Counted from the stretch's first letter, positions 10,201 to 58,360 are shown. The stretch: 59,606 nucleotides of DNA from a bacterium (GCA_036733285.1 DAINAU010000002.1:1-59606); one strand, 5' to 3'. Numbers and translations: made by a program. Notes: a model not told the origin generated them from the sequence alone.

Positions 10201-10237
10201 ACTTCCCGACTTCTTTTCAGTTTATTAAATAATTGTT

Positions 10238-13442: not shown

Positions 13443-13477
13443 CTCGTTAGATTCAACGGCATAATTTAATCTACATA

Positions 13478-13551: not shown

Positions 13552-13560
13552 ATAGTAAAT

Positions 13561-13611
13561 TTTGTATTATCAAAAATATTTTTTTTCGCAAAATTTTTTT
13601 GATAATACAAA
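13561..13611. repeat. Long AT-rich hairpin (16-bp perfect outer arms) just downstream of moxR
   Basis: tttgtattatcaaaaa (13561-13576) pairs with tttttgataatacaaa (13596-13611). It shares the TTATCAAAAATATT core with the 121-165 hairpin. Confidence 0.85.
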
Positions 13612-13633
13612 TAGCTTTTTCGGCTTACCCGGC

Positions 13634-37295: not shown

Positions 37296-37296
37296 T

Positions 37297-38405: not shown

Positions 38406-41400
38406 ATGATTGAATATAAAAATCGCGTTTATTTTTTTGTATTGTTGTTTTTTTTAATCGAGTGGATTAATCCTTATAATTTCTACGCCGAACCCGCCGA
38501 CAAACAAAAAGAAGAAATTTACAATCTCGCTTCTCAAATCATTGGAATTATCGATAATAAAATTTCCGCAGTCTCAGAATCGGATAAAAAAAAACTGGCT
38601 GAATTATTAATCGAGCAATCGGAATATTTTCTTTTAAAAATGCAAACTACTGAAAACACCGATTCTGATTTGGCTTTGAAAGATAAAGAATCTTATATAA
38701 ATTTATTAAAAAAAACCGAACAAATCTACAATTTCATTGATTACCAGCCCGGAATATTTTTATGTAAAAGCAGATTATTGAAATTTGAAATATCAGGAAT
38801 TGAACCGTTATCCGATTATGAATCCTCGAAAAAAAATCTTATCGGCAAAATATCGTCTTATTTAAAAGAATTGCCCGCCGAAGAATCGGCGCAATTTAAA
38901 AGTTCCTCAAATCAAAATCTGGAAATTAAACCCCTTCCATCCGGTTCGGAATCCGTTGCGGAAAGCGTTTCCGCAAAATCCGTTGCGGAAAGCGTTTCCG
39001 CAAAATCCGTTGCGGAAAGCGTTTCCGCAAAATCCGTTGCGGCACCTGTAAAAAATGTTAATGATAAATCAATTTTTTCCCAACAAACCGGAATAAATAC
39101 TGATACGCCGCAATCTCAAAGTTCCGGACAATCTCCGGAAACCGGCATTATCTCCAATGTCAGTTCTACTCAAAATGAAACTCATCCGGTTATACCGGTA
39201 AATTCCGTTTCGGGTTCTGCCGAAAATTCAAACGATTTTGATTCTTCAGCCGCAGCCGATTCGCTCCCCAAAAAAATAATCTTATCCGATACTTATCAAA
39301 TACAAGAAATTAAGGAAATCCTCGAACCGTCGGTTTCATCAAGTCTTCAGCCTTTTTTTCATCAACCGGCATTATTGGAACCAAAACTTTCATATTCAAA
39401 CGATATGAAAATATCGCCGGTTCTCCGTCATATTCTTTTCACCGAAAAATTAGAAAAAGAATTTGAAGAAATAAGAAGTCAACGTTTATTAGACCTTACG
39501 GATTTAAAATACGGAAATACAAAATTATCAATCAGCGGACAAAAAACGATTAATTTTTCTTATTCAAACAGAAAATACTCTAAGAATACGGATTCTACCG
39601 AAAATTCATCTGATTTTAAAATCGACCAGACGCTTGAAGTAAAAGTTCGCGGTAAAGTCGGCGACAACGTGGAAGTCAATATTGATTATGACGATCAGCG
39701 TTCTTCATCGAACAGACAGCAATTAAGCATCGATTACAAAAGCGACGAACATATTTTAAATAAACGGACAAACAGTAATATTTTTTCCGGATACGCCGCG
39801 TTCGGGGATATAGTTTTATCGTTGCCGAGCACGGAATTCGTTTCATACCGCAGAAGTTTATTTGGAATTAACGGCGGAATAAAAATCAGAAATCTTAATT
39901 ATTCCATACTTAAAGCGGACCAGATAACGCTTGACATTATCGCTTCACGCACAAAAGGCGAACCCGGTCACAAAGAATTTACCGGAAATAACAGTTCGCA
40001 GATTATCAATACGGTATTTGACGTTAATTACGTAAAAAACAAATATTTTAAAGTTCATACCGGCGTTGGACTCGATACCGATATCGACGTAACGTCTTTG
40101 TCGGTATATATAGACGATAAAAATCCCACTAATGACCAATCGAATATAGATACTTTCGCTATTGAAGTGAATCCAAACGATCATACAAAATACAATATTT
40201 CAATGAACGGAGATACTTACAGAATCTATTCGTTCACTCAGCTTACAGCCGTAAAGGATTACACTTACGACAAAACAAAAGGAATTCTCACATTAAATTC
40301 TTATATAACCGACAATTACGCAATCGCCGTAACTTACACTACATATAAAGGATATGCCACGCCCCATAAAAAACTTATAAAAAAGGATAAAGATTCTCAA
40401 AATTCGGATACTTATTCAATTTATAACATTAAAAACAGATACAGTTTCGGAGTAAGCAACATCAATAAAAACGACCCTGATTTCATTTTTAAAATCCAGG
40501 ATAAAAACAATAATTATATGTCCGATTATTACGCCAATGCGGCTGATTCAAGTTCGGCGATTTCTTTCTTGAAAATTTTCGGACTCGATAAAACAGGTCC
40601 TGGTCCGGATGGTTTATACGGAACATCCGACGACAGACCGGACGGAAAAATAGACGATGATTTTATTGATTACGAAGACGGCTGGGTTGAATTCCCCGAT
40701 CCGCAACCTTTTAACGGCTCAGGCTCGGCTCAATACGGTTTATCAAATCCTTTAATTTACACGGACGATAATCCTACGAGCAGATTTAGATTTTATCTTG
40801 AATTAAAAGCTCAAAGTCAGCAGTTTTTTCTTAACGCTTTTGACCTCGTTAGAAACAGCGAGATAGTGAAAGTCGACGGAAGAACTCTTACGAGAAACGT
40901 TGATTACTATATTGATTATGAAAGCGGTTTATTGATTTTTCTTGACCCGTCCTTATTAACAAAAAACAGCAAGGTTGTAGTCGATTACGAAAGAGTTCCG
41001 TTTGGATCGTCGGCAAATAAAACGCTGGTCGGAACAAGATTTGAAGCCATTGTGAACCCGAATTTTAAAGCCGGAACAACAATGATTTTTAACACCAACG
41101 ATAAATCTTCTGAAATTCCGACAATTGACGCCGCGCCCCAGAGCACATCGGTAAAAGATTTTGATATGGAAATGCGCCCTGCAAACTTATTCGTCAATAT
41201 ATTAAATAAATTTTTAAAAAACGATATTAAAGAGCCGCCGTCGTCATGGTTTGACATTAAACTTATTACAGAAGTCGCAAGAAGCGAATTCGACCCCAAT
41301 ATTTTCGGCAAGGCTATGATAGACGATATGGAATCTTCCAAAGACGCCATTGATATCAATATGAATTATAAATCATGGATGCTTACCCATTTAACGGAAT

Positions 41401-44400
41401 CCCAACCCGGCTGGAAAAATCTGCCGGTTTCAAAAAAAGGGTGGGTGACTTTTGACGAGACCTCGCTTGACAACAATATCGGACATAAAGCGGTTCTGGA
41501 AGACAATGAAGACAATCAAAAATCTATGATTATTTCATATGATTTAACCAACGATTCCGCCGGAGTTTTAAATTATGACACATGGTTTGCAATTAGAACG
41601 CTCGTATCAAAAGACGGCGTAGACATATCAAAGAAAAAATATCTTGAATTCTGGATTCAAGGAGCCGACAGTTTTAATATAAGTCTTGATTTAGGAAGAA
41701 TTAATGAAGACGCCGACGGCGACGGAGTGTTGGACCAGGAAGACGGTTTATATGTTAACGGAATCCCGACTGAAAAAAATTCATTGAACGGAGTTTTAAA
41801 CAAATCTCCCAACGAAGACGTGGGTTTATCATACGAATGCGGCGGCAAAATTAAAAATACCGGCAAAGGCAACGGAAGATTGGATTCGGAAGATATGAAC
41901 GGAGACGGCGAACTTGATCAGATAGAATCTTTTTACAGAATAACCGATATTGACACGTTTCAAGGCGAAGGAAAAATAATAAACGGAATCCCTTACAAAT
42001 TTTATAGAATAACTCTTGGAGATTTATATCAAAACTCTATGAATTCGCCTAATAATAAAAGCATTAAACACATCAGATTTATTTTCACAAGAAAAGACGG
42101 GGCAACCGCAGCTCCTGCCGGCAATATTTATATGGACTATCTTTCCATAGTCGGAAGTTTATGGCTCGACGGAGATACGGATAATTTTAAAGCCGGAAGC
42201 AAAAACAATATCGACGACAACGATTACGCTTCTTTCAACGAAGAAATGTCTTTAAGAAAAGTCGAAGACGAAGACGAAGGAGCCGTAAAAGAAAGCGCGT
42301 TATTCTTGAAATACGATAAAATCGGTTATTACGATTACAGTTCGCCTTCATACAAATATTACGCGGAACGAGATTTCGGAAGATCTATAAGCGTGGCAAA
42401 ATATGAAAAATTGATTTTTTACGTCCGCAGTTCGGAAAATAACGGAGAAACAGCGTTTATCAGACTTGGAGACCAAAACAATTATTACGAATATAAATTT
42501 AAAATTCCCGAAGTATCTTCAGACATAACAAAATGGGAGAAAATTGAAATTCCATTAATGGCGTTCAGAACTATTGTCAATTCCATTAACGACAGCTCTG
42601 TGAATCCTCCTTATATTATTGATTCCGGCCCTTACCGGGTTTGCGCTCAAACCTCGCTTGTTTCATTATATAACATCAGAACAATAAAATTCGGAGTTAT
42701 AGGCGACACGAATTTATCCACAGGAAATTTGTTTATTAATACGCTCTATGTGGAAGGAGCGATTAAAGAAACGGGAATTGCCAGAAAAACTCAGTGGCAA
42801 ACCAAATTTTACAAGGACATTTTTATTTTCAACGCAAGGGAAGATTACAGAGAAAACACTTTCCGCAGCGTCGATGAGATTTCTTCTTCCGTATCGCAAT
42901 CATTCGTTCCGGAAAAAAGCTCGAAAAAAAGTTACGACGGCAGCGTGGCAATCGGCAGACTGCTTCCTTCAAAATGGGGAATAACTCTGCCGGTAAGCGG
43001 AACTTATACAAAAAGCGACGTTGTGGTTGAACCGGACGTAGTTCAGGACGTCGAGCGGAGTAAGATAGGGACTACCGGATCTAAAACGCAAACGTTTTCA
43101 ACGTCTTTTTCAAAAGACAAATTTCCGTTGCTGAAACTTGATTATGAAAATTCGGAAACAGATAAAGATTTAACCGAATCAAAATACAAATTTCTATCGA
43201 AAAAATTAAATTCTTCGGCAAGTTATTCAATTAATTTCAACAAACATATTTTCGGAGAATTGGCTTTAATAAAAAAAATACCACTGCTTAATAAAATCCC
43301 TTCCGGAAAAGAATTACGCGTCGATATGAACTACCAGTATAATTACACTATCGACGATAAAGATTATATTCTCGGAACCGAAGCTTCCGCATACGACAAA
43401 TATGTTACGCATTACAAGAAAATGGGAATAACTTCCAAACCGGCAAACTGGATTAGACTTCAGCCGAATATTTCGATAACCGACAAATATCATACCACTA
43501 TGCAGGTAGACGGACTTGAAAACAATATAGTTCAAACCTCCATAAACATAGATATAATCAAAGTATTGGGAATAAAACCGGTATTCGATTTCAGCCGCAG
43601 CAAAGATTCAAGATACGATATTTCAAGACCTGATTCCGACCCGATTGAAAATCTCGATTACGGCGCCGGAGTAAAACTCGATATATATCCGGTTGACTGG
43701 TGGAAACGCCTGAAATTTTTAGACGGCAGGTTTAATCTCAGCGGAAAATATGTGGAAACCTTAAACGCAAATCAAGCCGTTAAAGATAAAAATTCAGATA
43801 TAAACGCTTCATTATCATTGGACGTAAATATCAGACCCAACGAATTATGGAAAAGACTTAAATTCCTGACCGTTCATTATTCATACGGCAATAACGTATC
43901 CGCGACATATTCAAAATTGGGAACCGATAAGGATTTCAATTCGATTTATACGGATTATTTTTCAAAATACATCTGGCCCTGGTTAAGCAAGGATAGAATA
44001 CCTATAAACGAGGGCGACACTTCAATAATAGATAAACGTAGCGCGGCGAACAATTCTCAATCGCACACCATAAACGGACAATTTAATTTCTGGGATCCTT
44101 TAAGCTTGAGATATGCTTATTCCACAAAAAATTCTATTACGCAAAGTCAGTCTTCGGAGAGTTTTAGCAAATCGTTAAGCGCTCAGATAAATTCGCGGCT
44201 TGATTTGATTAAAAGCCTTAAACTTATGAAAAAAACAAAAAAATCAAGTTTAAACATCGATTATAAATATTCAAAAGACGATTCCGGCGATTACAAAATG
44301 AATTTAACCGAATCGCTTAATCACGACAGAAACATAGGTCTTGAAATATTATGGACTGATAAATTCAACACTGTTTTCAATATGGGACTTCCGTTCAGCA

Positions 44401-44786
44401 AAAAAAATTCAGTTTCCGAAAGCGGACTTACGATTGAAAAAACGAATTCCTACACTCCTAAGATCACGTGGAATTATTATACCGCGTCGCCTTTCAAATT
44501 GTTAAAACCATTCACAAATAAAAAATGGATTTTCGACAATAAACTAAATCTTAACGGAACAATCAATTATAATCTGCAAAAAACCTCGATTCAACGAACC
44601 GACAATACCAATTATAATTCTGCGAATCTTGTCGAATTCGGTTTTACCGTAGGCGCTCAATACGATATGAGCGATTTTTTCAGAATGAGCGCGGATTTGC
44701 GTTTGAACAAGCATCAAAATAAAATTACCGAAGGCGACGATTACATAGAATACGGCATTAACACTAAAATTATTATTATTTTCTGA
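38406..44786 (+). CDS. sprA: SprA/Sov-like very large outer-membrane protein (T9SS translocon homolog)
   Basis: Signal peptide; SprA-like motifs IDQTLEVKVRGKVGDNVEVNIDYDDQ, SEIVKVDGRTLTRNVDYYIDYESG, KTLVGTRFE, EVARSEFDPN..G.AMIDDME, DLGRINED.DGDG.LD.ED, LDSEDMNGDG; beta-strand-rich C-terminal ~600 aa ending in Phe. The ORF track starts at TTG 38397. Confidence 0.8.
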   Translation: MIEYKNRVYFFVLLFFLIEWINPYNFYAEPADKQKEEIYNLASQIIGIIDNKISAVSESDKKKLAELLIEQSEYFLLKMQTTENTDSDLALKDKESYINLLKKTEQIYNFIDYQPGIFLCKSRLLKFEISGIEPLSDYESSKKNLIGKISSYLKELPAEESAQFKSSSNQNLEIKPLPSGSESVAESVSAKSVAESVSAKSVAESVSAKSVAAPVKNVNDKSIFSQQTGINTDTPQSQSSGQSPETGIISNVSSTQNETHPVIPVNSVSGSAENSNDFDSSAAADSLPKKIILSDTYQIQEIKEILEPSVSSSLQPFFHQPALLEPKLSYSNDMKISPVLRHILFTEKLEKEFEEIRSQRLLDLTDLKYGNTKLSISGQKTINFSYSNRKYSKNTDSTENSSDFKIDQTLEVKVRGKVGDNVEVNIDYDDQRSSSNRQQLSIDYKSDEHILNKRTNSNIFSGYAAFGDIVLSLPSTEFVSYRRSLFGINGGIKIRNLNYSILKADQITLDIIASRTKGEPGHKEFTGNNSSQIINTVFDVNYVKNKYFKVHTGVGLDTDIDVTSLSVYIDDKNPTNDQSNIDTFAIEVNPNDHTKYNISMNGDTYRIYSFTQLTAVKDYTYDKTKGILTLNSYITDNYAIAVTYTTYKGYATPHKKLIKKDKDSQNSDTYSIYNIKNRYSFGVSNINKNDPDFIFKIQDKNNNYMSDYYANAADSSSAISFLKIFGLDKTGPGPDGLYGTSDDRPDGKIDDDFIDYEDGWVEFPDPQPFNGSGSAQYGLSNPLIYTDDNPTSRFRFYLELKAQSQQFFLNAFDLVRNSEIVKVDGRTLTRNVDYYIDYESGLLIFLDPSLLTKNSKVVVDYERVPFGSSANKTLVGTRFEAIVNPNFKAGTTMIFNTNDKSSEIPTIDAAPQSTSVKDFDMEMRPANLFVNILNKFLKNDIKEPPSSWFDIKLITEVARSEFDPNIFGKAMIDDMESSKDAIDINMNYKSWMLTHLTESQPGWKNLPVSKKGWVTFDETSLDNNIGHKAVLEDNEDNQKSMIISYDLTNDSAGVLNYDTWFAIRTLVSKDGVDISKKKYLEFWIQGADSFNISLDLGRINEDADGDGVLDQEDGLYVNGIPTEKNSLNGVLNKSPNEDVGLSYECGGKIKNTGKGNGRLDSEDMNGDGELDQIESFYRITDIDTFQGEGKIINGIPYKFYRITLGDLYQNSMNSPNNKSIKHIRFIFTRKDGATAAPAGNIYMDYLSIVGSLWLDGDTDNFKAGSKNNIDDNDYASFNEEMSLRKVEDEDEGAVKESALFLKYDKIGYYDYSSPSYKYYAERDFGRSISVAKYEKLIFYVRSSENNGETAFIRLGDQNNYYEYKFKIPEVSSDITKWEKIEIPLMAFRTIVNSINDSSVNPPYIIDSGPYRVCAQTSLVSLYNIRTIKFGVIGDTNLSTGNLFINTLYVEGAIKETGIARKTQWQTKFYKDIFIFNAREDYRENTFRSVDEISSSVSQSFVPEKSSKKSYDGSVAIGRLLPSKWGITLPVSGTYTKSDVVVEPDVVQDVERSKIGTTGSKTQTFSTSFSKDKFPLLKLDYENSETDKDLTESKYKFLSKKLNSSASYSINFNKHIFGELALIKKIPLLNKIPSGKELRVDMNYQYNYTIDDKDYILGTEASAYDKYVTHYKKMGITSKPANWIRLQPNISITDKYHTTMQVDGLENNIVQTSINIDIIKVLGIKPVFDFSRSKDSRYDISRPDSDPIENLDYGAGVKLDIYPVDWWKRLKFLDGRFNLSGKYVETLNANQAVKDKNSDINASLSLDVNIRPNELWKRLKFLTVHYSYGNNVSATYSKLGTDKDFNSIYTDYFSKYIWPWLSKDRIPINEGDTSIIDKRSAANNSQSHTINGQFNFWDPLSLRYAYSTKNSITQSQSSESFSKSLSAQINSRLDLIKSLKLMKKTKKSSLNIDYKYSKDDSGDYKMNLTESLNHDRNIGLEILWTDKFNTVFNMGLPFSKKNSVSESGLTIEKTNSYTPKITWNYYTASPFKLLKPFTNKKWIFDNKLNLNGTINYNLQKTSIQRTDNTNYNSANLVEFGFTVGAQYDMSDFFRMSADLRLNKHQNKITEGDDYIEYGINTKIIIIF
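38950..39042 (+). repeat. In-frame 27-bp tandem repeat (SVAESVSAK x3 plus partial), each unit a perfect hairpin
   Basis: aatccgttgcggaaagcgtttccgcaa at 38950, 38977 and 39004, each containing TTGCGGAAA-GCG-TTTCCGCAA. Confidence 0.95.
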
Positions 44787-44792
44787 TATGGC

Positions 44793-45128
44793 ATGAAAAA
44801 AAAAAGCGTCATTATTATCGCTTCTATATTGTTATTAACGGTTCTTCATTTCATAATTTTAAGCGACAGCGGGCTTGTGCAAAGATACCGCCTCAATAAA
44901 GAAAAAGATAAACTTCAAAATGAAATTGACAATCTTAATATTGAAATTTCAGATTTGAAAACCGATATCATCAATCTTAAATCAAACGATTTTTACGTTG
45001 AAAAATGCGCAAGAGACAATTATAAACTTCTTAAACCCGGAGAAATTATTATTAAAATCGAAGACGGTTCAATGAAAAATAAACGTTCGAATTTAGGCGA
45101 TTCCATTACGGCGTTAAATTCAAAATGA
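44793..45128 (+). CDS. ftsB: Septum formation initiator (FtsB/DivIC)
   Basis: N-terminal TM, SDSGL, coiled coil, YVEKCARDNYKLLKPGEIII. Confidence 0.85.
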   Translation: MKKKSVIIIASILLLTVLHFIILSDSGLVQRYRLNKEKDKLQNEIDNLNIEISDLKTDIINLKSNDFYVEKCARDNYKLLKPGEIIIKIEDGSMKNKRSNLGDSITALNSK

Positions 45129-45850
45129 AAAAAATCCCCGATATTTTAAGAACTATTTTTTTTTACGCTGGAATATTTATTATAACAGTCGCCGTTTGTA
45201 TCGGAATTGTTTTAGCCGCTTTATTAAAAAAAGAAAAGACCGCCCGTATTTTTTTTAAAAAATGGGGAAAATATATTGTTAAATTAACGGGTTCAACCGT
45301 AAGTCTCGAAGGTCTGGAAAATCTCGATTTTTCTTCAAATTATCTTTTTTGCCCGAACCATTCAAGCGCGTTCGATATTTATGCGCTGTCCGGTTATCTG
45401 CCTTTTGATTTCGCGTGGATATCTAAAGAAACATATTTTAAAATACCGCTTTTAGCCGAAGCTATGAGAAATATAAATTGCATAGAAATGAACCGGACTA
45501 ATCCGAAAAAAGCGTTCGCTTCACTGAAAAAAGCCGCCGATATTATACGGGATAAAAAATTATCTATCGCTATTTTTCCGGAAGGCACGCGTTCTCCCGA
45601 CGGCAAACTGCAGGATTTTAAACGCGGCAGTTTGTATCTCGCGGTCGAAACCGGCTTAAAAATAATTCCGGTTACCATAATAGGAGCTTTTGATATCCTG
45701 CCGAAAAAACGCCTGATTATTTCCAGACAAAACGTAAAAATAATTTTTTCCAAACCTTTGAATCCGCCGGACAAAAATAAAGAAACTCAAAGAAAAACAA
45801 TAGATGAAATAAAAAACATAATCAAAAACAATCTGGAAAATTCAAAATAA
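45125..45850 (+). CDS. plsC: 1-acyl-sn-glycerol-3-phosphate acyltransferase
   Basis: NHSSAFD (HX4D), SKETYFKIP, FPEGTRS, IIPVTIIG. Confidence 0.93.
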   Translation: MKKIPDILRTIFFYAGIFIITVAVCIGIVLAALLKKEKTARIFFKKWGKYIVKLTGSTVSLEGLENLDFSSNYLFCPNHSSAFDIYALSGYLPFDFAWISKETYFKIPLLAEAMRNINCIEMNRTNPKKAFASLKKAADIIRDKKLSIAIFPEGTRSPDGKLQDFKRGSLYLAVETGLKIIPVTIIGAFDILPKKRLIISRQNVKIIFSKPLNPPDKNKETQRKTIDEIKNIIKNNLENSK

Positions 45851-45997
45851 AAGTTACAATTCAAATCTATTCATAAAAATTAGTCGAGTAGAGCGAGATA
45901 GGTTTTAAATTGATAATGTATTAAATGTAAAGTGAAGTAGCGATTTCAATTGGAATTGTTTAACCTTTTCTAAAACATATATACGCTCTTGTATATT

Positions 45998-46047
45998 ATA
46001 TAAAGTCATTCATTGACGTTATATTTAAATGCAACGGCTTATTATAA
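45998..46047. repeat. Dispersed intergenic element, copy 2
   Basis: 46012-46047 is the reverse complement of 13478-13513 with 2 mismatches. atataaagtc (45998-46007) and gacgttatat (46015-46024) form an IR with one mismatch. Confidence 0.85.
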
Positions 46048-46052
46048 AATAA

Positions 46053-47339
46053 TCAATTCATCAAATCATAACCGAGTCTGCAGAAATGGAGGTTTAATTT
46101 GTTTTGCGCAACGGTTATATTTTCTATTTCATATTCTTTCAGAAATCGTTTTTCATCGTTGAATAACGAAATTTTGAAATTATAAACTCCGGGTTTAAGT
46201 TTAAGAAAAAATACGTTGAGTCTGCCTGGGAGCGTGTTCCAAAATCTCGGATCCATCGAGTCTTTTCCTCTTATCAGCCAGCCTATGGGTTTTGCGTCTC
46301 TTGTGGTTTTTCTTCTTATCTCGTCTTTTATTTCGTCTTTAAACAGATTATATGCGGTTTTTGTTATTATATCTTTAATTTTTTGTTCGGGAATATTTGT
46401 GTTAAATGATTTTACAGCGATATTATCGAGGTTTAAAAAAGCGTTTATTCCTGATTTGCTTCTCGGTTCCGGAACCGGAATATACGAAGGAGAAACTTCT
46501 TTAAACAAAATATTTAAAATCTGCTCGTTATCTTCCGAATCGACAGCTTTACTGATTTTATATTGAGTTTTCAATTTATTATATATTTCGAGAGAATACT
46601 GAGAATAATTAATGTCGTTTACGGATTTTGGCAAATCCGCAAATATTATAACCGGTTCAAAAAAATTATAATCCTGAAAAAAATAATAGTCCGAATATTT
46701 TGATAAAACGCTATTGATATTTTTAGCGCTTTCTTCCTCGTATCCGAGACTTTTTAATGTTGAAGCGAGAATATCGTATGCCGGCAAAAACGTGTCGTCA
46801 ATCGAAATGATTTTGCGCATTGAAACCATACCGGTATTATAATCTCTTAAATTTTTTATGGAAATACAGCCAAGCAATAATTCCGAAAATACTGATTGCG
46901 GCTCGTTAATCAGGGATTTTCTCAATTCAATAAGGCATTTTTCCGTATCGTTTAAATAATAAAAACAGACAGCTTTAAAAAAATGCAGATACGCAAGGTC
47001 GAGTTCTTTTAGCTGATAAGGAAGCCGGTCGGAAGCTATTACTGAACTTACTATAAAATTTTTTTCGAAATTTAATTCTTCAGCTTCGGTCAGAATGCGC
47101 AAAGTTTCAGAATAGTTTTTTTCCCAAAACCTCGACGCCGCAAGGTTTAATAAATATAAAGTTTTATTAATTGAAAATTTTGCCGATGCGCCGTCGGAAT
47201 ATTCTTTTGCCGCTTCGGAAAATTTGTTCGAATAAAATAAATTATCGCCTTTTCTTGCAGACTGCATTCCGGCGCAGGAACATAACACTGCGGCAAACGA
47301 AGCAATTACAAAACCGCGGACAATTCTATTTATTACCAT
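46053..47339 (-). CDS. TPR lipoprotein (COG3014-like)
   Basis: Lipobox LCSC after ATG 47339; TPR-like LYLLNLAASRF..KNYSE; D.RFWNTLPGRL near the C-terminus; adjacent to an LpoB-like gene. Confidence 0.72.
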   Translation of the reverse strand: MVINRIVRGFVIASFAAVLCSCAGMQSARKGDNLFYSNKFSEAAKEYSDGASAKFSINKTLYLLNLAASRFWEKNYSETLRILTEAEELNFEKNFIVSSVIASDRLPYQLKELDLAYLHFFKAVCFYYLNDTEKCLIELRKSLINEPQSVFSELLLGCISIKNLRDYNTGMVSMRKIISIDDTFLPAYDILASTLKSLGYEEESAKNINSVLSKYSDYYFFQDYNFFEPVIIFADLPKSVNDINYSQYSLEIYNKLKTQYKISKAVDSEDNEQILNILFKEVSPSYIPVPEPRSKSGINAFLNLDNIAVKSFNTNIPEQKIKDIITKTAYNLFKDEIKDEIRRKTTRDAKPIGWLIRGKDSMDPRFWNTLPGRLNVFFLKLKPGVYNFKISLFNDEKRFLKEYEIENITVAQNKLNLHFCRLGYDLMN

Positions 47340-47914
47340 CTGCTTTTTACTTGCGTTTTTTTGAATTCTGCCTGACCCGACCATAATTCAACGCCAGTAG
47401 TAGTATTGGTTATAGTAATTGATAATCTGAAATATGTCTCCTGTTTTTTCGTGATGGGATTCCAGCCGTCTGACCGCGTTTTATCTATCGAATCAATTCT
47501 TCCATACATCAAATAATCGGCTCCCCAGAATTTGTTTCGCTGTTGAATGTGTTCCGCGGTTCTGTCTATTAAATTTTGTTCTTCTTCAATAACGCTCATT
47601 CGGTCGCGTTCCACAAATACGGCTCCGGATTTTGTTTTTATGGCTTCCTTGATTTTTTCGGAAATTATTTTTGTGTTGAAATGTTCTGACGTCATATTGT
47701 CAATGGAACGTAAGGCGACCGTTTTGCCTTTTATTTCAACGAAATCTTTTGAAATATCGCCTGCGATTTTTGAAGCCATCGTTTCAATATCAACGTTGGT
47801 AACTCCGGTATCCGCGTTAATATCGCTGTCGACGTCGACTCTTTTTGAAGCGCATCCAAACGCTAAAACCAAACAAAAAAATACGGCAAACGAAATTCTA
47901 ATAATTTTAAACAT
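47333..47914 (-). CDS. LpoB-like / CsgG-HfaB-fold lipoprotein
   Basis: Lipobox AFGC; DIETMASKI; IDNMTSEHFNT; FVERDRM; GADYLMYGRI; TGVELWS. Confidence 0.75.
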   Translation of the reverse strand: MFKIIRISFAVFFCLVLAFGCASKRVDVDSDINADTGVTNVDIETMASKIAGDISKDFVEIKGKTVALRSIDNMTSEHFNTKIISEKIKEAIKTKSGAVFVERDRMSVIEEEQNLIDRTAEHIQQRNKFWGADYLMYGRIDSIDKTRSDGWNPITKKQETYFRLSITITNTTTGVELWSGQAEFKKTQVKSRW

Positions 47915-47933
47915 AACCGGAATTCCCCCTTTT

Positions 47934-50798: not shown

Positions 50799-50895
50799 AA
50801 AAAAAATCCCGATTATATATAAAATTCAGATTATATATAATATTATAATCAAATTTTTAATAGTCAATATTTTTTATAAAATCTTTAAACTTTTT

Positions 50896-53166
50896 TTACC
50901 GAGAAGAATAGGATTGAGCTTCAAGATATTTCTTAAAATAATCCGGACGTATGGAATTTGTCATTCTGAAGTAATACTCCGCTTTGTAATTTTCGTTTAG
51001 TTTATAATACAATAATGCAATCTGCCCGTAATAATACGGATTGTATTTATCGAGTTCAGAAGCCATTAAATAAAAATCTATGGATTTCATATAATTGTTT
51101 GTAAGATAAAATAAATTCGCAATATTATTAATGTATGTTAGATTTTTTTTGTTTTTTTCGTATAAAAACATATAGTAATTCAGAGCTTGAAAATAATTTT
51201 TTTCTTTAATAGAAATGTCGGCGATTTTTTTTATTTCAAAATCCGGCTTATCGTCCGCGACGGCGGAAGAATTTAAAAAGACGTTTGCGAATTCATAATA
51301 TTCGTTATTGAATTCAAAAATTAAATCCTCGGCAAAAGGAATATCGGGATTATACGGTTGATTCAGATTCAGAGGCGGATATTTTTCCCATATATCATTA
51401 ATATCGAATATGCGGTAATCCGAGGTTTGAATATTTTCCAAACCGGTTTTCCATGCGGCGATAAAACTTTTATCTAACGCGGAAACTTCTATAGGCGCGT
51501 AAAATTCGCCGTTTAAGTTGATCAGCATATTCTTAAGATATTCAAATTCGTTTATATTTTCTATTCCGGAATTGAAAGCTATAAAAATATGTTTTGGTTG
51601 AATAATTAATTTTACGTCGATTCCGGCGTTTAAAAATAACGAAGCGAACAAAACGGAAAAATCATCGCAATCGCCGCGTTTAAGTTCGAGCGTTTCCGCG
51701 GGATATTGAATAAAATCGAGCAGTTTTTGTTCGTCGTTATATCCGTGAAACGGATATAAAACGTCTTTTTCATATTTTAATCCGGTAAGTTTTAAAGCGT
51801 TAAACAAGACCGCGGCTTTGTTAATATTCGCGGGAAGCGGAAGTTTGAAACTCTTATTTTTAATAAGTTCCGTTAGTTTTGAATTGAATTTTTCGACAGG
51901 CGAAGATTTCGGAGAAATAAAAACTCCTATCTTTTCCGGCTCGTTCCATAAAAATGAATTTTTGTTAAATATGACGATAGGAATTTTTTCATAATCGACG
52001 TATTCCCTGTTGTTGATTCTATAATAAAATTTCACGGTAAATTGTTTTGAAACAAAATCGCGGATATTAAAAATATTATCGTTGAAATTTATTGGAACGC
52101 ATATTTTTCTTTCCTCGCCGGCTTTAAAAAGAAACGCGTTTTTTTTCGAAGAAACTGCGAATTCGTTGTCTGAAATATCAATATCAATTGAGATTGATTT
52201 ATCCGCCGTATTGACAATACGAAAAACCGTAAAAGGATTGGAACTGCTCGAATAAATGTTTTTTAAACTCGGAAAAAAAACGATTGGTTCCGAAGAATCA
52301 ATTAATTTGACGAAATTTTTAAAACCGAATTTATAACCGAGCGCGAACTTGTAAGAATTTCCGAGTTCCGAATTCAAATCGTTCGAGTAATCAATAAAAA
52401 AATCTTTCGCCAAAAATCTTAATCCGAAAGAATATCTTGCCGAATCGTTTGGAGAAAATTGCTTTTTTAAACCGCCGAACAAATGCAGAATATTCGGAAA
52501 CGCTCTGAATTCTCCGCCGAAATAAAATATTTTTCTGTCGTCGTAATCGGTTCCGAATAGAAATTTTCCGATATTATAGGATAATCCCAATCTTATATAA
52601 TTATCGTCAAAATCGGATTTTACTCCGTCGGAATATTTTATTTTCGGATTGTTAATATTTGCGAACATTACGCCGGCGCGGAAATTACTTTTTGAATAAA
52701 GCAGACCCGCGTCGTAAGAATTGGCGGTTCCGTCATTTTTTACAATCGACAGATAATCCGCGTCTGTATTGTAATTTTTATAAGTAAAGCCAAGACTTAT
52801 GTCTTTGAAAATTTTTCCCGCGAAATTAAATAAAAAATTATTTTGAGCGAACGACAGTTCGCCGTCGTCAAAATTTGCGCCGGCATATCCGGCAATCAAA
52901 CCGAAATTTCTGAACAAGGGAAGCGAATATAAAAGTTGATTATGCTTGACGTCAAGTTTGTAAATATCCGTTGAAAACATATAAATCTCGTGATTATTCA
53001 AAAAAGCCGCGCCCGCAGGGTTATAAAAAACGGATGACGCGTCGTCCGCTATGCCGGTAAATGCCGATATTGAACCGGCTCTCGTCGTATTGATAATCTG
53101 ATAGGCGTCTGCGTTTGACGCGGCGAAAATCGCGAATATAATAAAAAATATTAAATATTTTTTCAT
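50896..53166 (-). CDS. PorV/PorQ (FadL-like) beta-barrel fused to Ig-like, transglutaminase-like and TPR domains
   Basis: AFTGIADDASSVFYNPAG at the N-terminus; barrel end LGNSYKFALGYKF; QYPAETLELKRGDCDDFSVLFASL...KHIF...PIEVS; C-terminal TPRs. Confidence 0.78.
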   Translation of the reverse strand: MKKYLIFFIIFAIFAASNADAYQIINTTRAGSISAFTGIADDASSVFYNPAGAAFLNNHEIYMFSTDIYKLDVKHNQLLYSLPLFRNFGLIAGYAGANFDDGELSFAQNNFLFNFAGKIFKDISLGFTYKNYNTDADYLSIVKNDGTANSYDAGLLYSKSNFRAGVMFANINNPKIKYSDGVKSDFDDNYIRLGLSYNIGKFLFGTDYDDRKIFYFGGEFRAFPNILHLFGGLKKQFSPNDSARYSFGLRFLAKDFFIDYSNDLNSELGNSYKFALGYKFGFKNFVKLIDSSEPIVFFPSLKNIYSSSSNPFTVFRIVNTADKSISIDIDISDNEFAVSSKKNAFLFKAGEERKICVPINFNDNIFNIRDFVSKQFTVKFYYRINNREYVDYEKIPIVIFNKNSFLWNEPEKIGVFISPKSSPVEKFNSKLTELIKNKSFKLPLPANINKAAVLFNALKLTGLKYEKDVLYPFHGYNDEQKLLDFIQYPAETLELKRGDCDDFSVLFASLFLNAGIDVKLIIQPKHIFIAFNSGIENINEFEYLKNMLINLNGEFYAPIEVSALDKSFIAAWKTGLENIQTSDYRIFDINDIWEKYPPLNLNQPYNPDIPFAEDLIFEFNNEYYEFANVFLNSSAVADDKPDFEIKKIADISIKEKNYFQALNYYMFLYEKNKKNLTYINNIANLFYLTNNYMKSIDFYLMASELDKYNPYYYGQIALLYYKLNENYKAEYYFRMTNSIRPDYFKKYLEAQSYSSR

Positions 53167-53183
53167 ATTTTTTTTCCTATTAA

Positions 53184-55763
53184 TTATTTAACATAAATCG
53201 TTTTTTTTAAAACTCCCGAGTTATCTTTGCAGAATAGCGCGTATAATCCGGCAGGAACTTTTTTCCCGTTTTTGTTTTTTCCGTTCCATTTGTTTGTTCT
53301 GTCGCTGAACATCAATTTTCCGTTTAAATCAAATACGCTTATTTCAGCGGAACCGTTAATATTTAAAACCGATATTTCGTCGCCGTCAAATTCAATAACG
53401 CGTTTATTTAAAGAAAGAGACGATGTGATTACCTCCAATGAAACAGGGGGATTCATTGCAGCGGCATATATTCCGGATCTATTAAACGAAGAGGTTATTG
53501 TATTGTTTATCGAATCGTAATATCCCCCCAAATTCAACCACGCAGAATCGCGTCCGTTGTTAAATAAAATGCTGAAATCGCCGGAAACCCCAGAGGACGA
53601 TTTTAAAGCTTTTTTAATAGCCGGAGCAAATACTGATTCTGAAACTTTAACCGTAATCATAAATTTTTTTGCAATAAGGCTGTCGTCAAATTCTATTTTA
53701 TATTTGTCTGAAACAAATATAAGTCCGGGTCCGTTGAAAGAAGCTATCGTTTTATAAACAACGATATCCAGCGGAATATCCGCCGCTTTCAAAGGAAAAT
53801 CCAGTTTTAAATTGCCATTATCCGAAGTAAAAACGGAATATTTGTTTGAAGAAATTTTCATTGTGTCGTTTTTGAATGAAAACGATACCGAGTCCGTTGA
53901 AAAATAAACCGAATCAGTTTCAAATACCGATAATTCGGCAGTATAAGTATCGTCCGGAAAATTCAGCGAATTGAAAGAATAAATTATTCCCGAATCGACC
54001 GGTTGAAAAATATCGGTATCTAAAACAGTATTCCCTGAAAGCGTAAAAATTTTAAAATTATAATAATAAAAATTTGAATCCGATGCCGAGCCGGTAAAAT
54101 TAATTACGCCGCCGCCGTAATTAATATTTTTATCCAGAATAGCGCAGGGCATTTTATTGTCGATAATAATTTTACGATATGCCGGAGTCATTGATTTTTT
54201 GTCTCGAAAAGACTGCTCAACCTGAAAAATATATTCGCCGTCTAAAAGCCCGCCGAATGTTTTTTCAAAAACATAGTCCGGTTCCGAATAACCGGAACCG
54301 TTGATTCTGTAAGAACTTTTAGGCGCTATAATATTTTCCATTTGAATCCATTTGAAAGTAACCGACGTGTCGTGAATAAGATTGTTTCGAGGCTCGTAAA
54401 TCAAAGGCGTGGAAAAATCGGCGTTATTTCCCGTATTATTGAGCGTGAACATAAATTTTGAATTGCAAACCGAATTGTAATCCGCCGGAGAATCCAGGGT
54501 TATGGCAGTGATAATTTTTTCTTCGGTAGCCGCGATAATGTCCATTTTTCCGTCGTTATCAAAATCATTTATAACAGGCGTGGATTCGATTATTTTTTTT
54601 TGAGGCGTATAATAATGATATTTTACTTTATTCATACCATAATTATAAACTTGAATCTCTCCGTTATATGTGGCGATTATTATTTCCATTTCGGTATCGC
54701 CGTCGATATTAGCTATTACAGGGCAGGAAACTCCCGCCGAATCAGAATTCGGGAATCCTGAAAAAAGCTGGGCGGAGTTATCTAAAAAGAGAAACTGTCC
54801 GGGATTTTGGATTTTATTGTAATTGGTCAGTATAAAAAAAATCATATCGCTTGCGCCGTCTCCGTTAAAATCATATATAGCCGGATGACATCTCATCAGC
54901 GCGTTGAAATAATAAGGATAATTCTGAAGATACGCTATTTTTCCGTTTGAGTCGATATTAAAAACATACGCGTTATAATCCCATGCGGTTATTATGAATT
55001 CCTGAATTCCGTCGTTGTCGATATCCGCCGCCGCCGGAGGAGCGTCAATTCTTGCGTTGATTTTACTTGAAAGAATTCTCTCTCCATTATGTTTGAATAT
55101 CGAAAAAACTCCGCCGTTGGCGCAAACCGTGATTTCAAAAAATCCGTCGTTGTCGTAGTCGGTTATAAGCGTTGTTGTTCTGGAGCCCAAATCAAAATTG
55201 TATTGACTGTTTTCGGTATTAGGAACGATTCTTTGAGGCCAGCCGGACAATGATTTGCCCGTGCCGTCAATTACGTAAAGATAACCGTCTAATCCGGCGA
55301 CTATAATATCCGGCGTTCCGTTTCTATCAATGTCGGCAATCGAGGGCGCGCCTCTGATTTCCTGCGTTGTTGCGAATGGAAATCCTTTTGCCAAGGAACC
55401 GTCGAATTTAATAACGTTTAAAAGAGAGTTTTTAGAACCGATTATTATTTCGGCTTTACCGTCGTTATCTATATCCGCTATTGCAGGCGAAGACCATATC
55501 GCGTCGCCTGCAAATACTGGAAAACCCGGTTTTGACGTTCCGTCGCTTTGAACCGCGTAAATATAACCGCTTTTATCGCCTGCAATATATTCTTTTATTC
55601 CGTCCGCGTCTATATCCGCTACGGCTCCGTTTCCATAAAAATCTCCGAATGACGTATATGGAAATCCGTCTAATACGCGGAAACTTGCGGTTTCGCAGTA
55701 TCCCTGACAAATCCCGCATACGACAATAAAAATAATCGAAGCCGCAATAATTGTTCTATTCAT
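53184..55763 (-). CDS. FG-GAP repeat protein with Ig-like domains and a FlgD-Ig/T9SS-like C-terminal domain
   Basis: Signal peptide; repeated SSPAIADIDNDG; C-terminus ISVFDLNGK...WNGKNKNGKKVPAGLY...KKTIYVK. Confidence 0.82.
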   Translation of the reverse strand: MNRTIIAASIIFIVVCGICQGYCETASFRVLDGFPYTSFGDFYGNGAVADIDADGIKEYIAGDKSGYIYAVQSDGTSKPGFPVFAGDAIWSSPAIADIDNDGKAEIIIGSKNSLLNVIKFDGSLAKGFPFATTQEIRGAPSIADIDRNGTPDIIVAGLDGYLYVIDGTGKSLSGWPQRIVPNTENSQYNFDLGSRTTTLITDYDNDGFFEITVCANGGVFSIFKHNGERILSSKINARIDAPPAAADIDNDGIQEFIITAWDYNAYVFNIDSNGKIAYLQNYPYYFNALMRCHPAIYDFNGDGASDMIFFILTNYNKIQNPGQFLFLDNSAQLFSGFPNSDSAGVSCPVIANIDGDTEMEIIIATYNGEIQVYNYGMNKVKYHYYTPQKKIIESTPVINDFDNDGKMDIIAATEEKIITAITLDSPADYNSVCNSKFMFTLNNTGNNADFSTPLIYEPRNNLIHDTSVTFKWIQMENIIAPKSSYRINGSGYSEPDYVFEKTFGGLLDGEYIFQVEQSFRDKKSMTPAYRKIIIDNKMPCAILDKNINYGGGVINFTGSASDSNFYYYNFKIFTLSGNTVLDTDIFQPVDSGIIYSFNSLNFPDDTYTAELSVFETDSVYFSTDSVSFSFKNDTMKISSNKYSVFTSDNGNLKLDFPLKAADIPLDIVVYKTIASFNGPGLIFVSDKYKIEFDDSLIAKKFMITVKVSESVFAPAIKKALKSSSGVSGDFSILFNNGRDSAWLNLGGYYDSINNTITSSFNRSGIYAAAMNPPVSLEVITSSLSLNKRVIEFDGDEISVLNINGSAEISVFDLNGKLMFSDRTNKWNGKNKNGKKVPAGLYALFCKDNSGVLKKTIYVK

Positions 55764-58360
55764 TTTATATAAACAGCCTTTTTAATTTTTTTAGAACCGG
55801 TTTCAAATAAAATAATATATAATCCGGATTTATACTTTGCTCCGGAAAAATATACGGGGAAACTATGATTCCCCGAAGGAAAATTCCCGTCGTAAATTTT
55901 ATCTATTAAAATTCCGTTTAAATCATAAATTTTTATGTTTAATTTTTCCTGTCTTTCAAAATAAAAATTTATAGAGGCGTTTTGATTTTGCGTAATAATT
56001 CTCGGGGTAACGGAGATATTTAATTTTTCAGTATCTATCGGCGCAAAATATTCGTAACTGTCCGAACTGGCCGCGGCAAAATAGCGGCCGCTGTTTCTGA
56101 AAATAAAATTAATATAACCGTCGAATATTGAACCTCCGATTTTCGTTATATCCGCGCCTGTAGAATCAGAAGAATAATAAACTGATATCGGTCTGTTTTC
56201 AAACGATATGCCCCGTTCCTGTTTTGGTTTTGAAAATCGCGACGAATTTAATTCGGTCGGCGATAGTTTTATTGCGCAGTTTAACGGCTGTTTTAAACTA
56301 ATGTTTTCGCCGCCGATAAAATAGACCGGACTGAATAAAGAAAGATTATCGTATGCCGATAACTGAGCGCAGTATATTTCAAAATTCTGGTTGTATTCGA
56401 CGCTGTTTTGAGGAACGGATATTTCTACCGCTGAACTGTCAAAACAAATTTTGCCGTTATACTCTGGAGTTAATAGGATTTCAGATTTTGAGTTTATTAC
56501 GGTTATTTCAGATTCGGAAAAATTATTTGACAACAGTTCATACGCGCAAATTTTTAAATTTATAGTTCCGCCGGAATATTCGGAAAAATCGAATTGAAAT
56601 TGAATGGTTTCCGGAGTATTGTGAGATTCATAAATTTTTTTATAACCGGTAGTATCGGTTTTGATAAAACATAAAATCGTGTCAATATTATTTTCTTTAA
56701 TGTTAAATTTGATATTCCACAATCCCGAAACAGTCTGATTGTTTTGAGGCGAGATAAAACTAATTTCAGGAGGCGCATTATCAATTTTAAAAACGAATTT
56801 AAGATTTTCCGCAGTCGTTCTGTTTCGTTCGTTTTTTGCTTTTAATAGAAAAACGTAATCTGAATCCGTAAGATTGTTAAAAGTAATTTGAGAGTCTTTT
56901 GAAAAATCCGAAAACGGATTTCCGTTGAGAGAATATGAATAATAATAAGTATCGAAAAAATGGGGATTTTTCCATTTGACAGTATAATTATTTCCTCGCG
57001 TAATGAATGCCGAATCATTGCAAATAACCGGTTGCGTTATAAAAAAATTTGTGTTAGTGTTGCGGATATCTCCAAGCGGATAAACCGAATATGCAGTCGA
57101 AGAGTTTGTAGGTATAATATGAATCTGGTTTTCATCGTTATATACGATATCTGCTTTTCGGTTTCCGTCGACGTCCGCTATAACAGAAGCCATCACGTCT
57201 TTGCCTTCTAAAGAAATTTCCGCTAACTTTTTCATAAAACTGTCCGCTTCATTTTCATAACCTATGATATTCAGATAGTTTTTAAATCCGGGGTAAACCA
57301 AATCAAGAAGCCCGTTGTTGTCATAATCGATATACGAAGCGGAATAATAATTCATTCTGTCAGTTATTTTACGGTCTATAAATCTCGGATACGAATCGAC
57401 GAATTCGATAGCGTTGAAAGTGTCGTTGGCGATTGTTTGAAACGTAACCGCGGCAAATAAATCATAAGGTTTGATATTTGAACCTGTTTTTAAATGAGAC
57501 GTTAATGCGAATTCAAAATTGTCGGAATATTTTATTGAAGCGCCGCCGATTAGATTGTCGGTATAAGGCGGCTGATTGGAATAATAATCAAATAGTCTTG
57601 AATCCCTTTTATTGGAATAGGTATATATATAAAAACATTTTCCATAAGAGTAAATAATTTCAGGATAAGTATCCCCGTCAAAAGAGTCTGTAACAAAAAA
57701 AGTGTTGTAATCGCTTTTGAACGACATAGAAGTCAGTTCGCCGAAAGCTCCGTTGTTTTTTAAATTGACGTATTTAACGCGCCTATCCTGACAGCATACT
57801 ATCAAATCGTTATATCCGTCTTTGTTATTATCGAAAAGAATCGGAGGTTTTTCAATTTCGGAAATTAAATCTACAGGATAATATGAATTAAGAATTCCTT
57901 TTCCGTTGAAATTGTATAATCTGGTATTTCCGATTAATATTTCAAGCTCGTTGTCCTTGTTGAAATCCGCAATTACCGGATTTAAATATTTGGGAGAATA
58001 ATTCGCGACGTAAATATTTTCAAACCCTGGTTTTAAATTTCCTGCGGATAAATCAAACGCCTGTAAAAATCCCGAAGCGGTCCAGCAAACTATATCAAGT
58101 ATTCCGTCGTAGTCTATGTCCGCTATCGCCGGCAGCGAATTTACCGTTCCGTTAGTATATATTTTTTTTATGAGATTAAGATTTTCGTCATATATAACAA
58201 GGGAATCATCCGAACAAGCGGCGATTATCTCGGATTTGTCGTCGTTATTTATGTCAAAACAGATTGCGGTATTTGTGTATTCCGCGTTTAAACGAAAACA
58301 AAATACGGACAGAGCCAAAAAGATTAGTAAAAAACATTTAAAAAGTCGATATATAAACAT
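55760..58360 (-). CDS. FG-GAP repeat protein with a T9SS type A-like C-terminal domain
   Basis: Signal peptide; LPAIADIDYDG repeats; C-terminus P...QNASINF...IKIYDLNG..I..I..G....G.H......KSGLYII......KKAVYIK. Its stop overlaps the next gene's ATG. Confidence 0.82.
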   Translation of the reverse strand: MFIYRLFKCFLLIFLALSVFCFRLNAEYTNTAICFDINNDDKSEIIAACSDDSLVIYDENLNLIKKIYTNGTVNSLPAIADIDYDGILDIVCWTASGFLQAFDLSAGNLKPGFENIYVANYSPKYLNPVIADFNKDNELEILIGNTRLYNFNGKGILNSYYPVDLISEIEKPPILFDNNKDGYNDLIVCCQDRRVKYVNLKNNGAFGELTSMSFKSDYNTFFVTDSFDGDTYPEIIYSYGKCFYIYTYSNKRDSRLFDYYSNQPPYTDNLIGGASIKYSDNFEFALTSHLKTGSNIKPYDLFAAVTFQTIANDTFNAIEFVDSYPRFIDRKITDRMNYYSASYIDYDNNGLLDLVYPGFKNYLNIIGYENEADSFMKKLAEISLEGKDVMASVIADVDGNRKADIVYNDENQIHIIPTNSSTAYSVYPLGDIRNTNTNFFITQPVICNDSAFITRGNNYTVKWKNPHFFDTYYYSYSLNGNPFSDFSKDSQITFNNLTDSDYVFLLKAKNERNRTTAENLKFVFKIDNAPPEISFISPQNNQTVSGLWNIKFNIKENNIDTILCFIKTDTTGYKKIYESHNTPETIQFQFDFSEYSGGTINLKICAYELLSNNFSESEITVINSKSEILLTPEYNGKICFDSSAVEISVPQNSVEYNQNFEIYCAQLSAYDNLSLFSPVYFIGGENISLKQPLNCAIKLSPTELNSSRFSKPKQERGISFENRPISVYYSSDSTGADITKIGGSIFDGYINFIFRNSGRYFAAASSDSYEYFAPIDTEKLNISVTPRIITQNQNASINFYFERQEKLNIKIYDLNGILIDKIYDGNFPSGNHSFPVYFSGAKYKSGLYIILFETGSKKIKKAVYIK

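Follow-up and report, generated by a model that had tools for sequence, protein, structure and literature searches.

A divergent SprA-like giant barrel, a PorV-family barrel and putatively tagged FG-GAP proteins encoded within 20 kb of a bacterial genome

The stretch of bacterial DNA analysed here, 59,606 nucleotides in length (GCA_036733285.1, DAINAU010000002.1:1-59606; hereafter the window) and with a G+C content of 34%, encodes between positions 38406 and 58360 a giant outer-membrane barrel of the SprA/Sov family, a barrel of the PorV family and two exported FG-GAP proteins with putative C-terminal domains (CTDs) of the kind found on cargo that a type IX secretion system (T9SS) exports. In the T9SS translocon of Flavobacterium johnsoniae, SprA/Sov exports the cargo and hands it over to PorV (PDB: 6H3I, 8GL6, 8GL8; PMC10994853). 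An initial annotation of the window, made from its sequence, had described these genes as a single module of 20 kb. All of the parts do lie within that stretch, but to call it a module overstates their arrangement, since they form two convergent units split by unrelated genes (DivIC, acyltransferase). The plus-strand run consists of the SprA-like open reading frame (ORF), a DivIC/FtsB-like gene and a PlsC-like acyltransferase gene. The minus-strand run, in the order of transcription, encodes a MORN protein, an FG-GAP protein of 866 residues, another of 859 residues, the 756-residue PorV-like protein, a 954-residue FG-GAP/fibronectin type III (fn3) protein, an LpoB-like protein and a protein of 443 residues.

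The giant barrel, the PorV-family barrel and the FG-GAP proteins

The SprA-like gene (38406-44786, plus strand) encodes 2126 residues from the ATG at 38406, or 2129 residues if translation starts at the TTG at 38397, where the ORF opens. A signal-like hydrophobic stretch at the N-terminus is followed by a lineage-specific low-complexity extension of ∼370 residues; the SprA-homologous region begins at about residue 367 and the protein ends in ...IIIIF. Inside the extension lies a perfect 27-nt tandem repeat of 3.4 copies (38950-39042, plus strand), which encodes SVAESVSAK units. The copy number of this repeat varies among public assemblies by two units, giving proteins of 2108 and 2126 residues, and the public copies of the contig are 59,727, 59,741 and 59,750 nt long; the variation is either between strains or between assemblies.

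That this ORF is a true, if distant, homologue of SprA/Sov came from comparisons of both sequence and predicted structure. The NCBIfam model TIGR04189 (Sov/SprA) matches it in four stretches with an E-value of 8.3e-48. A profile built from the window protein and its four nearest relatives (A1) retrieves F. johnsoniae SprA from the PDB (6h3i_A, E 7e-51), the match spanning SprA residues 162-1401 and 1474-1601, and hhalign aligns the window protein from residue 367 with PF14349-bearing SprAs over 1094 columns (probability 100%, E 2.4e-104). The C-terminal third of the protein is unaligned by sequence and is aligned by structure only. A partial AlphaFold2 model of residues 930-2129 (1200 residues), calculated from a 29-sequence alignment, has a pLDDT of 62.8 and a pTM of 0.43, with values above 80 in the last 250 residues and strands of 15-25 residues. 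When this model was compared with the PDB by Foldseek, the top four matches were all SprA chains (8gl8_A, 8gl6_A, 6h3i_A and 6h3j_A; E 2.7e-33 to 2.2e-26, probability 1.0, TMq 0.47-0.49), followed by MtrB (E 9e-6) and LptD (E ∼5e-4). The SprA-like protein proposed in the initial annotation is borne out by these matches, and within the 1200 residues modelled, its predicted fold is that of a SprA-type giant β-barrel.

The PorV-like protein of 756 residues (50896-53166, minus strand) consists of a PorV-family barrel followed by a long extension. The barrel domain, from residue 1 to ∼292 (52291-53166, minus strand), includes a signal peptide as well as the motif GIADDASSVFYNPAGAAFL, and ends in ...YKFALGYKFGF. 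Direct Pfam matches of this region are weak and limited to TraF_2, Toluene_X (FadL) and UPF0164. Its relationship emerges from a hidden Markov model (HMM) built from eight related-locus proteins, all of which pass NF033709 (cutoff 90 bits) with scores of 115-203: in a six-frame translation of the window, the 756-residue protein is the sole match, with an E-value of 2.1e-19. The alignment to the PorV/PorQ cluster runs from the signal peptide and a DDASS-x-FYNPAG motif as far as the last strand, ...YKFGF, near residue 292, and a joint profile that includes the window barrel (A2) matches F. johnsoniae PorV (6h3i_F) over the whole barrel with an E-value of 1.2e-29. By sequence homology, a PorV-family barrel is thus present as had been annotated, albeit one that stays below the cutoffs in a direct scan.

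The C-terminal extension (50896-52290, minus strand) comprises a β-sandwich (residues ∼310-400), a transglutaminase-like core (∼465-600) and tetratricopeptide repeats (TPRs; ∼640-750), a tail by which the window protein differs from PorV of Bacteroidota. The core carries the motif QYPAETLELKRGDCDD...KHIF...PIEVS, which it has in common with PF01841-bearing relatives; the Cys-His-acid triad (GDCDD / KHIF / PIEVS) is apparently intact, and the Pfam transglutaminase score is 22.3 against a gathering score of 23. Should the barrel be even-stranded like PorV, the tail would be expected in the periplasm, and it may have a role in processing CTDs or in tethering to peptidoglycan. That the transglutaminase-like domain could act as a PorU-like sortase is speculation only, which we set aside: fused to an even-stranded barrel it should be periplasmic, and its Pfam score is below gathering.

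Upstream of the PorV-like gene in the same transcription unit are the genes of the two exported FG-GAP proteins. The 859-residue β-propeller protein (53184-55763, minus strand) has its predicted CTD at residues ∼780-859 (nt 53187-53426) and ends in ...WNGKNKNGKKVPAGLYALFCKDNSGVLKKTIYVK; the 866-residue protein (55760-58360, minus strand), a distant paralogue with 26% identity, has its predicted CTD at residues ∼790-866 (nt 55763-55993) and ends in ...SGLYIILFETGSKKIKKAVYIK. The N-termini of both are signal-like. A further exported FG-GAP/fn3 protein, of 954 residues (47934-50798, minus strand), is without a CTD. The extreme C-termini of the 859- and 866-residue proteins match Por_Secre_tail, CHU_C and TIGR04183 with E-values of ∼1e-3, and an HMM made from CTDs encoded beside SprA-like genes elsewhere matches both window proteins at the C-terminus only (E 2.7e-5 and 2.1e-3). 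In the resulting alignment (A3), the shared features are an I-x-[IV]-[YF]-x-L-x-G strand, a G-[LIV]-Y motif and a terminal K-x-x-x-[IV]-[KR]; a W-[DN]-G-K-N motif is found in the 859-residue protein and not in the 866-residue protein. Both proteins therefore end, at the extreme C-terminus of a probably Sec-exported chain, in the G-x-Y and terminal K/R motifs of such domains. Searched against the PDB, the CTD profile matches FlgD (E 1e-6), the CTD of PorU (1.1e-5), the translocon-trapped substrates 8glk_D and 8glj_D, PorZ and RgpB. Among the 17 aligned CTDs, 16 match FlgD_ig (PF13860) and 14 match Por_Secre_tail (PF18962). The β-sandwich-type domain thus matches both the FlgD Ig-like family (PF13860) and the type-A CTD (PF18962/TIGR04183), the window copies being below both gathering scores. 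The two exported FG-GAP proteins with T9SS/FlgD-Ig-like CTDs named in the initial annotation can accordingly be seen, with the motifs expected of them and at sub-threshold scores.

Relatives, host lineage and gene neighbourhoods

Relatives of the SprA-like protein were sought in one genome per GTDB species, and 263 were found; the taxon and locus figures given here come from the best 80 of the 263, and all taxon labels are those of the submitters. By label, the best 80 include 60 from Elusimicrobia/-ota, 2 from Firestonebacteria, 6 'Clostridia' and 9 'bacterium', as well as Sumerlaeota and Caldiserica. The single close relative is encoded in a metagenome-assembled genome (MAG) labelled Candidatus Dependentiae (L003; 64% identity in the best segment, 78% over 487 residues), and for the others among the 80 the identity to the window protein is no more than 24-30%. 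The deposited 'hypothetical protein [bacterium]' is a fragment of the SprA-like protein with 90% identity. In metagenomes of the Joint Genome Institute (JGI), there is one distant relative only, suggesting that the lineage is rare. For the closest PorV-like relative (P0213), too, the MAG of origin bears the label Candidatus Dependentiae; this relative falls into a 90% cluster with P0047, which has 67% identity over the first 187 residues. The proposal of a host outside Bacteroidota is favoured by these Dependentiae labels on the closest relatives of both genes and by the 60 Elusimicrobiota among the best 80, while the support is indirect, through the labels of relatives.

The six 'Clostridia bacterium' MAGs (L005, L036, L056, L069, L076 and L080) have the Elusimicrobiota-type arrangement of lptFG and SprA-like gene. 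Their labels are probably wrong, because the genes carried are outer-membrane genes.

The window protein has its best full-length similarity to the Elusimicrobiota-type SprA-like family (L004-L082; 24-30% identity over 1100-1750 residues), and it shares with that family a C-terminal ...F β-signal and PorV/PorQ and CTD genes nearby. Together with L003 it forms a distant branch, 27% identical to the rest and with a unique N-terminal extension. Members of the family have 1.65-1.9 thousand residues and SprA 2.3-2.5 thousand, whereas the window protein reaches 2.1 thousand only through its 370-residue N-terminal extension. Against TIGR04189, some members of the Elusimicrobiota-type family pass the cutoff of 200 bits (L038, 210; L025, 226) and others score 121-182 bits. 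There are also intermediate forms of SprA that carry PF14349 (P0004, P0006 and P0007). Automatic annotation at NCBI already names part of the family SprA or PorV/PorQ.

The few matches in word-indexed searches (10 SprA-like, 7 PorV-like) reflect a limit of sensitivity and not rarity, since an exhaustive search gave 2428 relatives of the PorV-like protein, of which 253 cluster representatives have E <= 1e-30, many of them aligning end-to-end. Single alignments to barrel-transglutaminase-TPR relatives cover query residues 5-748. These relatives, which are known from sequence alone, have the same end-to-end architecture, with the window protein below NF033709. Some are named 'PorV/PorQ family protein' (UCD17147.1, Zixibacteria; UCE17624.1, Gemmatimonadota), and others are labelled 'TPR protein' (MAGs of Spirochaetota and Gemmatimonadota) or 'conjugal transfer protein TraF' (MBP7652895.1, a Candidatus Dependentiae MAG), the last being probably a wrong annotation of a close relative. 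Zixibacteria and Gemmatimonadota are phyla of the Fibrobacterota-Chlorobiota-Bacteroidota (FCB) group, so the architecture itself is no signature of a host outside that group.

ORFs were clustered from 80 related loci with 0.93 Mb of flanking DNA in all. PorV-family genes lie near the SprA-like gene in 17 of the 80 loci (21 genes) and genes of CTD proteins in 18 (19 genes), both within 1.8-7.8 kb. For the PorV-like density to arise by chance, we infer that at least 50 PorV-like genes per genome would be needed, and the clustering of SprA-like genes with PorV and CTD genes looks non-random. The order that recurs in Elusimicrobiota is PorV-like, M6 metalloprotease with CTD, PorV-like, lptG, lptF and SprA-like; in L003 it is CTD protein, PorV/PorQ (127 bits against the cutoff of 90), cyclic nucleotide-binding protein and SprA-like. 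Other clusters that recur near the 80 SprA-like genes are LptF/G, ComF, MetK, AhcY, GAPDH, PGK, transketolase and similar, and no motor-like (ExbB/MotA/GldL) neighbour recurs in these flanks.

Directly upstream of the SprA-like gene, a divergent lptG/lptF pair is found in 52 of the 80 loci (e.g. L038:3500-10800 and L081:7600-16800), and a comF-like phosphoribosyltransferase gene is directly downstream in 38. This lptG/lptF and comF synteny is absent from the window and L003, in which the cargo also differs: FG-GAP propellers in the window, M6-type proteases in Elusimicrobiota. The lptG/lptF adjacency is an unexplained tie between a T9SS-type pore and the export permease of lipopolysaccharide (LPS). 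It had raised the idea that the large barrel is an analogue of LptD, which we rejected as the primary explanation, the similarity to SprA being ∼30 orders of magnitude stronger in Foldseek.

In three Elusimicrobiota loci (L029:5561-7003, L040:5605-7017 and L038:1934-3427), the PorV-family barrel continues at its C-terminus into a fused LpoB/CsgG/FlgO-like domain, and other PorV-like barrels of the related loci end in TPR tails. These fused tails echo the separate LpoB-like gene and the TPR tail of the PorV-like protein in the window.

Other genes of the window

Immediately 3' of the SprA-like gene and co-directional with it are the DivIC/FtsB-like gene (44793-45128, plus strand) and, after that, the PlsC-like acyltransferase gene (45125-45850, plus strand). 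These two are probably co-transcribed with the SprA-like gene and not components of secretion. The minus-strand run starts with an exported MORN-repeat protein of 215 residues (58373-59020). In the unit of the cargo and the PorV-like protein there is also an LpoB/CsgG/FlgO-like periplasmic lipoprotein of 193 residues (47333-47914, minus strand), and the last gene of the run encodes the 443-residue protein (46053-47384, minus strand), to which no function was assigned; it has weak TPR-like matches and, from its sequence …AAVLCSCAG, is probably a lipoprotein. A further lipoprotein, of 433 residues and with the same kind of C-terminal LpoB/CsgG/FlgO-like domain, is encoded at 24072-25373, 22 kb upstream.

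Divergent from the SprA-like gene are the genes of a NifS-like cysteine desulfurase and a three-domain NifU (NifU_N, a BFD-like 2Fe-2S domain and the NifU C-terminal domain) at 36135-38115 on the minus strand, and a perfect TTGACA-17-TATAAT promoter match is found on the same strand at 38209-38181. A Bat-type (Bacteroides aerotolerance-like) operon at 3377-14620 (minus strand) encodes a MoxR-type ATPase, BatA-like and BatB-like von Willebrand factor A proteins, a BatC-like TPR protein and two large unknown proteins; a 299-residue ORF in it, without a family match, was taken as DUF58-like by position alone, and a SurA/PpiC-like peptidyl-prolyl isomerase is embedded within the operon. At 15972-16694 (plus strand) lies the gene of a 240-residue exported protein without a family match, in which 'SDFDTASLNADFA' repeats in tandem and a hydrophobic anchor lies at the C-terminus. 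A membrane anchor at the N-terminus, a long linker of low complexity and a weak match to TonB_C characterise a 356-residue protein (27369-28439, minus strand), which has no adjoining ExbB/ExbD; beside it, at 28834-29610 (plus strand), a small outer-membrane barrel-like protein is encoded (DUF6588-like, ending in ...SASFGF). The remaining genes of the window, counted together with those just described, are for MlaE, UvrB, the Bat-type operon with MoxR, the isomerase, a TolC-like protein, sensor kinases, response regulators, an LD-carboxypeptidase, the TonB_C-like protein, an O-antigen ligase-like protein, an MlaD-like protein, a CysE-like protein, NifS and the three-domain NifU. No rRNA, tRNA or Rfam match and no ribosomal protein gene was found in the window.

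A candidate export route, its alternatives and its meaning

We consider it probable that the window encodes the outer-membrane half of a type IX-like export route, and that this half has diverged into a form found typically in Elusimicrobiota and related uncultured lineages, not in Bacteroidota. The T9SS outer-membrane translocon has as its parts the pore, the PorV-type barrel and the tagged cargo, and all are present in the window. The sequence comparisons support the view that the three families are truly homologous to SprA, PorV and the type-A CTD, and the same three are genomically linked in many independent genomes with labels outside FCB. The likeness to Bacteroidota extends from the homologous giant barrel and the PorV-homologous barrel to cargo with a Sec-type signal and a C-terminal Ig-like tag (G-x-Y ... 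K-x-x-x-[IV]-[KR]).

Most likely, these genes would serve to export CTD-tagged surface proteins, which would pass through the SprA-like barrel and be handed to the PorV-like protein. As the N-termini of the two FG-GAP propeller proteins are signal-like, they would leave the cytoplasm by Sec. The C-terminal Ig-like domain, a homologue of the known tags, could then serve as the sorting signal, and the SprA-family barrel, for which both homology and fold are at hand, would let the tagged proteins through the outer membrane. They may then be received or anchored by the PorV-family barrel, whose gene shares a transcription unit with the cargo genes. The propellers themselves are likely to be adhesins. 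More speculatively, the PorV-like tail and the LpoB-like and TPR-like lipoproteins might connect the barrel with partners in the periplasm or with peptidoglycan. The SprA-like gene would be expressed apart from the cargo and PorV-like genes, the two units being convergent and not one operon, and a power source for release does not appear to be encoded in the window.

One way in which such a route differs from the T9SS of Bacteroidota lies in what accompanies the pore. There, GldLM drives a GldKN track with disulfide-linked outer-membrane partners (PMC12635249). As the initial annotation had noted for GldK/L/M/N, PorE and PorU, scans with Pfam and NCBIfam of essentially all ORFs of at least 100 residues in the 59.6 kb gave no match to models of GldK/L/M/N, PorU, PorZ, PorE, PorP or SprE/T, and PorG is not among the genes of the window. 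Canonical sprA does not normally adjoin gldKLMN. With no PorU in the window, cleavage of the PorU type and attachment to anionic LPS cannot be assumed for the window CTDs. The labels of the relatives, too, are not those of Bacteroidota.

Several findings weigh against the reading of the window as an export route. The window members of the three key families all stay below curated cutoffs: the SprA-like protein scores 162.6 bits with TIGR04189 (cutoff 200), has no Pfam match and no PF14349 match at E <= 0.01; the 756-residue protein has no NF033709 match at E <= 0.1 and no PF19572 match; and the CTDs of the 859- and 866-residue proteins score 19.0 and 19.1 bits with TIGR04183 (cutoff 23) and 21.6 and 17.4 with PF18962 (cutoff 27), the isolated 95-residue tail of the 859-residue protein reaching 25.1 bits with PF18962. 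The confidence of the AlphaFold2 model of the giant barrel is moderate, and that of the PorV-like barrel region, for which a 14-strand, FadL-like fold would be expected, is poor (pLDDT ∼25, from a 7-sequence alignment), its fold search giving TPR and sandwich matches only. In the PDB, the CTD profile matches FlgD best, and proven T9SS has a narrower distribution than either FlgD-Ig-like C-terminal domains or PorV/PorQ-family barrels. In a tblastn comparison of 45 window ORFs with 81 loci, no neighbours save the SprA-like and PorV-like genes are conserved, so the 20-kb stretch is not a conserved operon. Motor, ring, sortase and SprE/SprT-type genes are all missing from the window, which leaves a working system no more than a candidate.

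These points also feed the alternatives. One is that the CTDs are plain FlgD-Ig-like structural domains without a sorting function, in proteins that are periplasmic or leave by another route. Their sub-cutoff scores with TIGR04183 and PF18962, the rank of FlgD above any T9SS cargo in the PDB search and the lack of W-x-G-K-N in the 866-residue protein would all fit. We regard this as improbable in view of the exact C-terminal position of the domains and their G-L-Y and K-x-x-x-[IV]-K motifs, which are as in the CTDs of M6 proteases encoded beside SprA-like and PorV-like genes; moreover, both proteins share a unit with a PorV-family barrel, and the profile also matches the CTDs of PorU, PorZ and RgpB and those bound to the translocon. 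It is more improbable still that the SprA-like barrel is a housekeeping protein of envelope biogenesis, for example in LPS or lipid export, and that the PorV-like and CTD genes are near it in the window incidentally. Its similarity to SprA is orders of magnitude above that to any other barrel, and PorV-family genes (21) and CTD genes (19) are enriched nearby in the 0.93 Mb, against which stand the divergent lptG/lptF next to the gene in 52 of 80 loci, the comF that follows it there, the DivIC and PlsC-like genes that follow it in the window, its near-universal presence in sampled Elusimicrobiota (263 species genomes) and a weak Foldseek likeness to LptD (E ∼5e-4). The link to LPS, however, would also fit a T9SS-like function, as type-A cargo of Porphyromonas is attached to LPS (PMC8545088).

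The third alternative concerns what lies beyond the window, which is only 59.6 kb of the genome. GldK/L/M/N (PorK/L/M/N), PorU/Z, SprE and SprT could be encoded on other contigs, much as sprA and porV of Bacteroidota lie unlinked to gldKLMN, and the window would then belong to an ordinary, complete T9SS as a divergent standard member. That the barrel-transglutaminase-TPR architecture also occurs in MAGs of Zixibacteria and Gemmatimonadota, that PF14349-bearing intermediates of SprA exist and that taxon labels are submitter-given would agree with this. We nevertheless judge it unlikely: the closest relatives of two independent genes are labelled Dependentiae, the wider clade bears labels of Elusimicrobiota, Firestonebacteria and Sumerlaeota, surveys give T9SS genes as absent beyond FCB (PMC11285876), and the flanks of 80 SprA-like genes have no recurrent motor-like neighbour. 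Should the motor genes be found elsewhere in the genome, the result would be a modest one, the phylogenetic extension of a known system.

Reviews describe the T9SS genes as confined to Bacteroidota, or at most to the FCB group, and absent elsewhere (PMC11285876, PMC11205867), and the literature that we searched describes neither T9SS components from Elusimicrobiota or Dependentiae nor such proteins outside the FCB group. The novelty is tempered because relatives already bear the names SprA and PorV/PorQ through automatic annotation. Curated cutoffs, for their part, miss the divergent members: the SprA-like protein of the window is deposited as 'hypothetical' and the closest PorV-like relative as 'TraF'.

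The reading of the window as an outer-membrane half of a type IX-like route hints that this half is more widespread than published. The initial annotation had raised the idea of a minimal or ancestral system with a different energiser. It is conceivable, though we advance it only tentatively, that SprA, PorV and the CTD are an old, self-standing outer-membrane export module that works without GldLM/GldKN, and that the T9SS of Bacteroidota is a later elaboration that added the motor. Such a module might have been kept across Elusimicrobiota, Firestonebacteria, Sumerlaeota and the Dependentiae-labelled lineage, with another energy source or none, and with a genomic link to LPS export (lptF/lptG). 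If hundreds of Elusimicrobiota-type genomes, as well as this rarer lineage, have a SprA homologue beside PorV-family barrels and CTD-tagged proteins and are without GldLM/GldKN, the way in which cargo is released, the actual need for the motor and the origin of the system would become testable. The C-terminal tag would then also give a route to predicting the surface proteomes of little-known, uncultured phyla.

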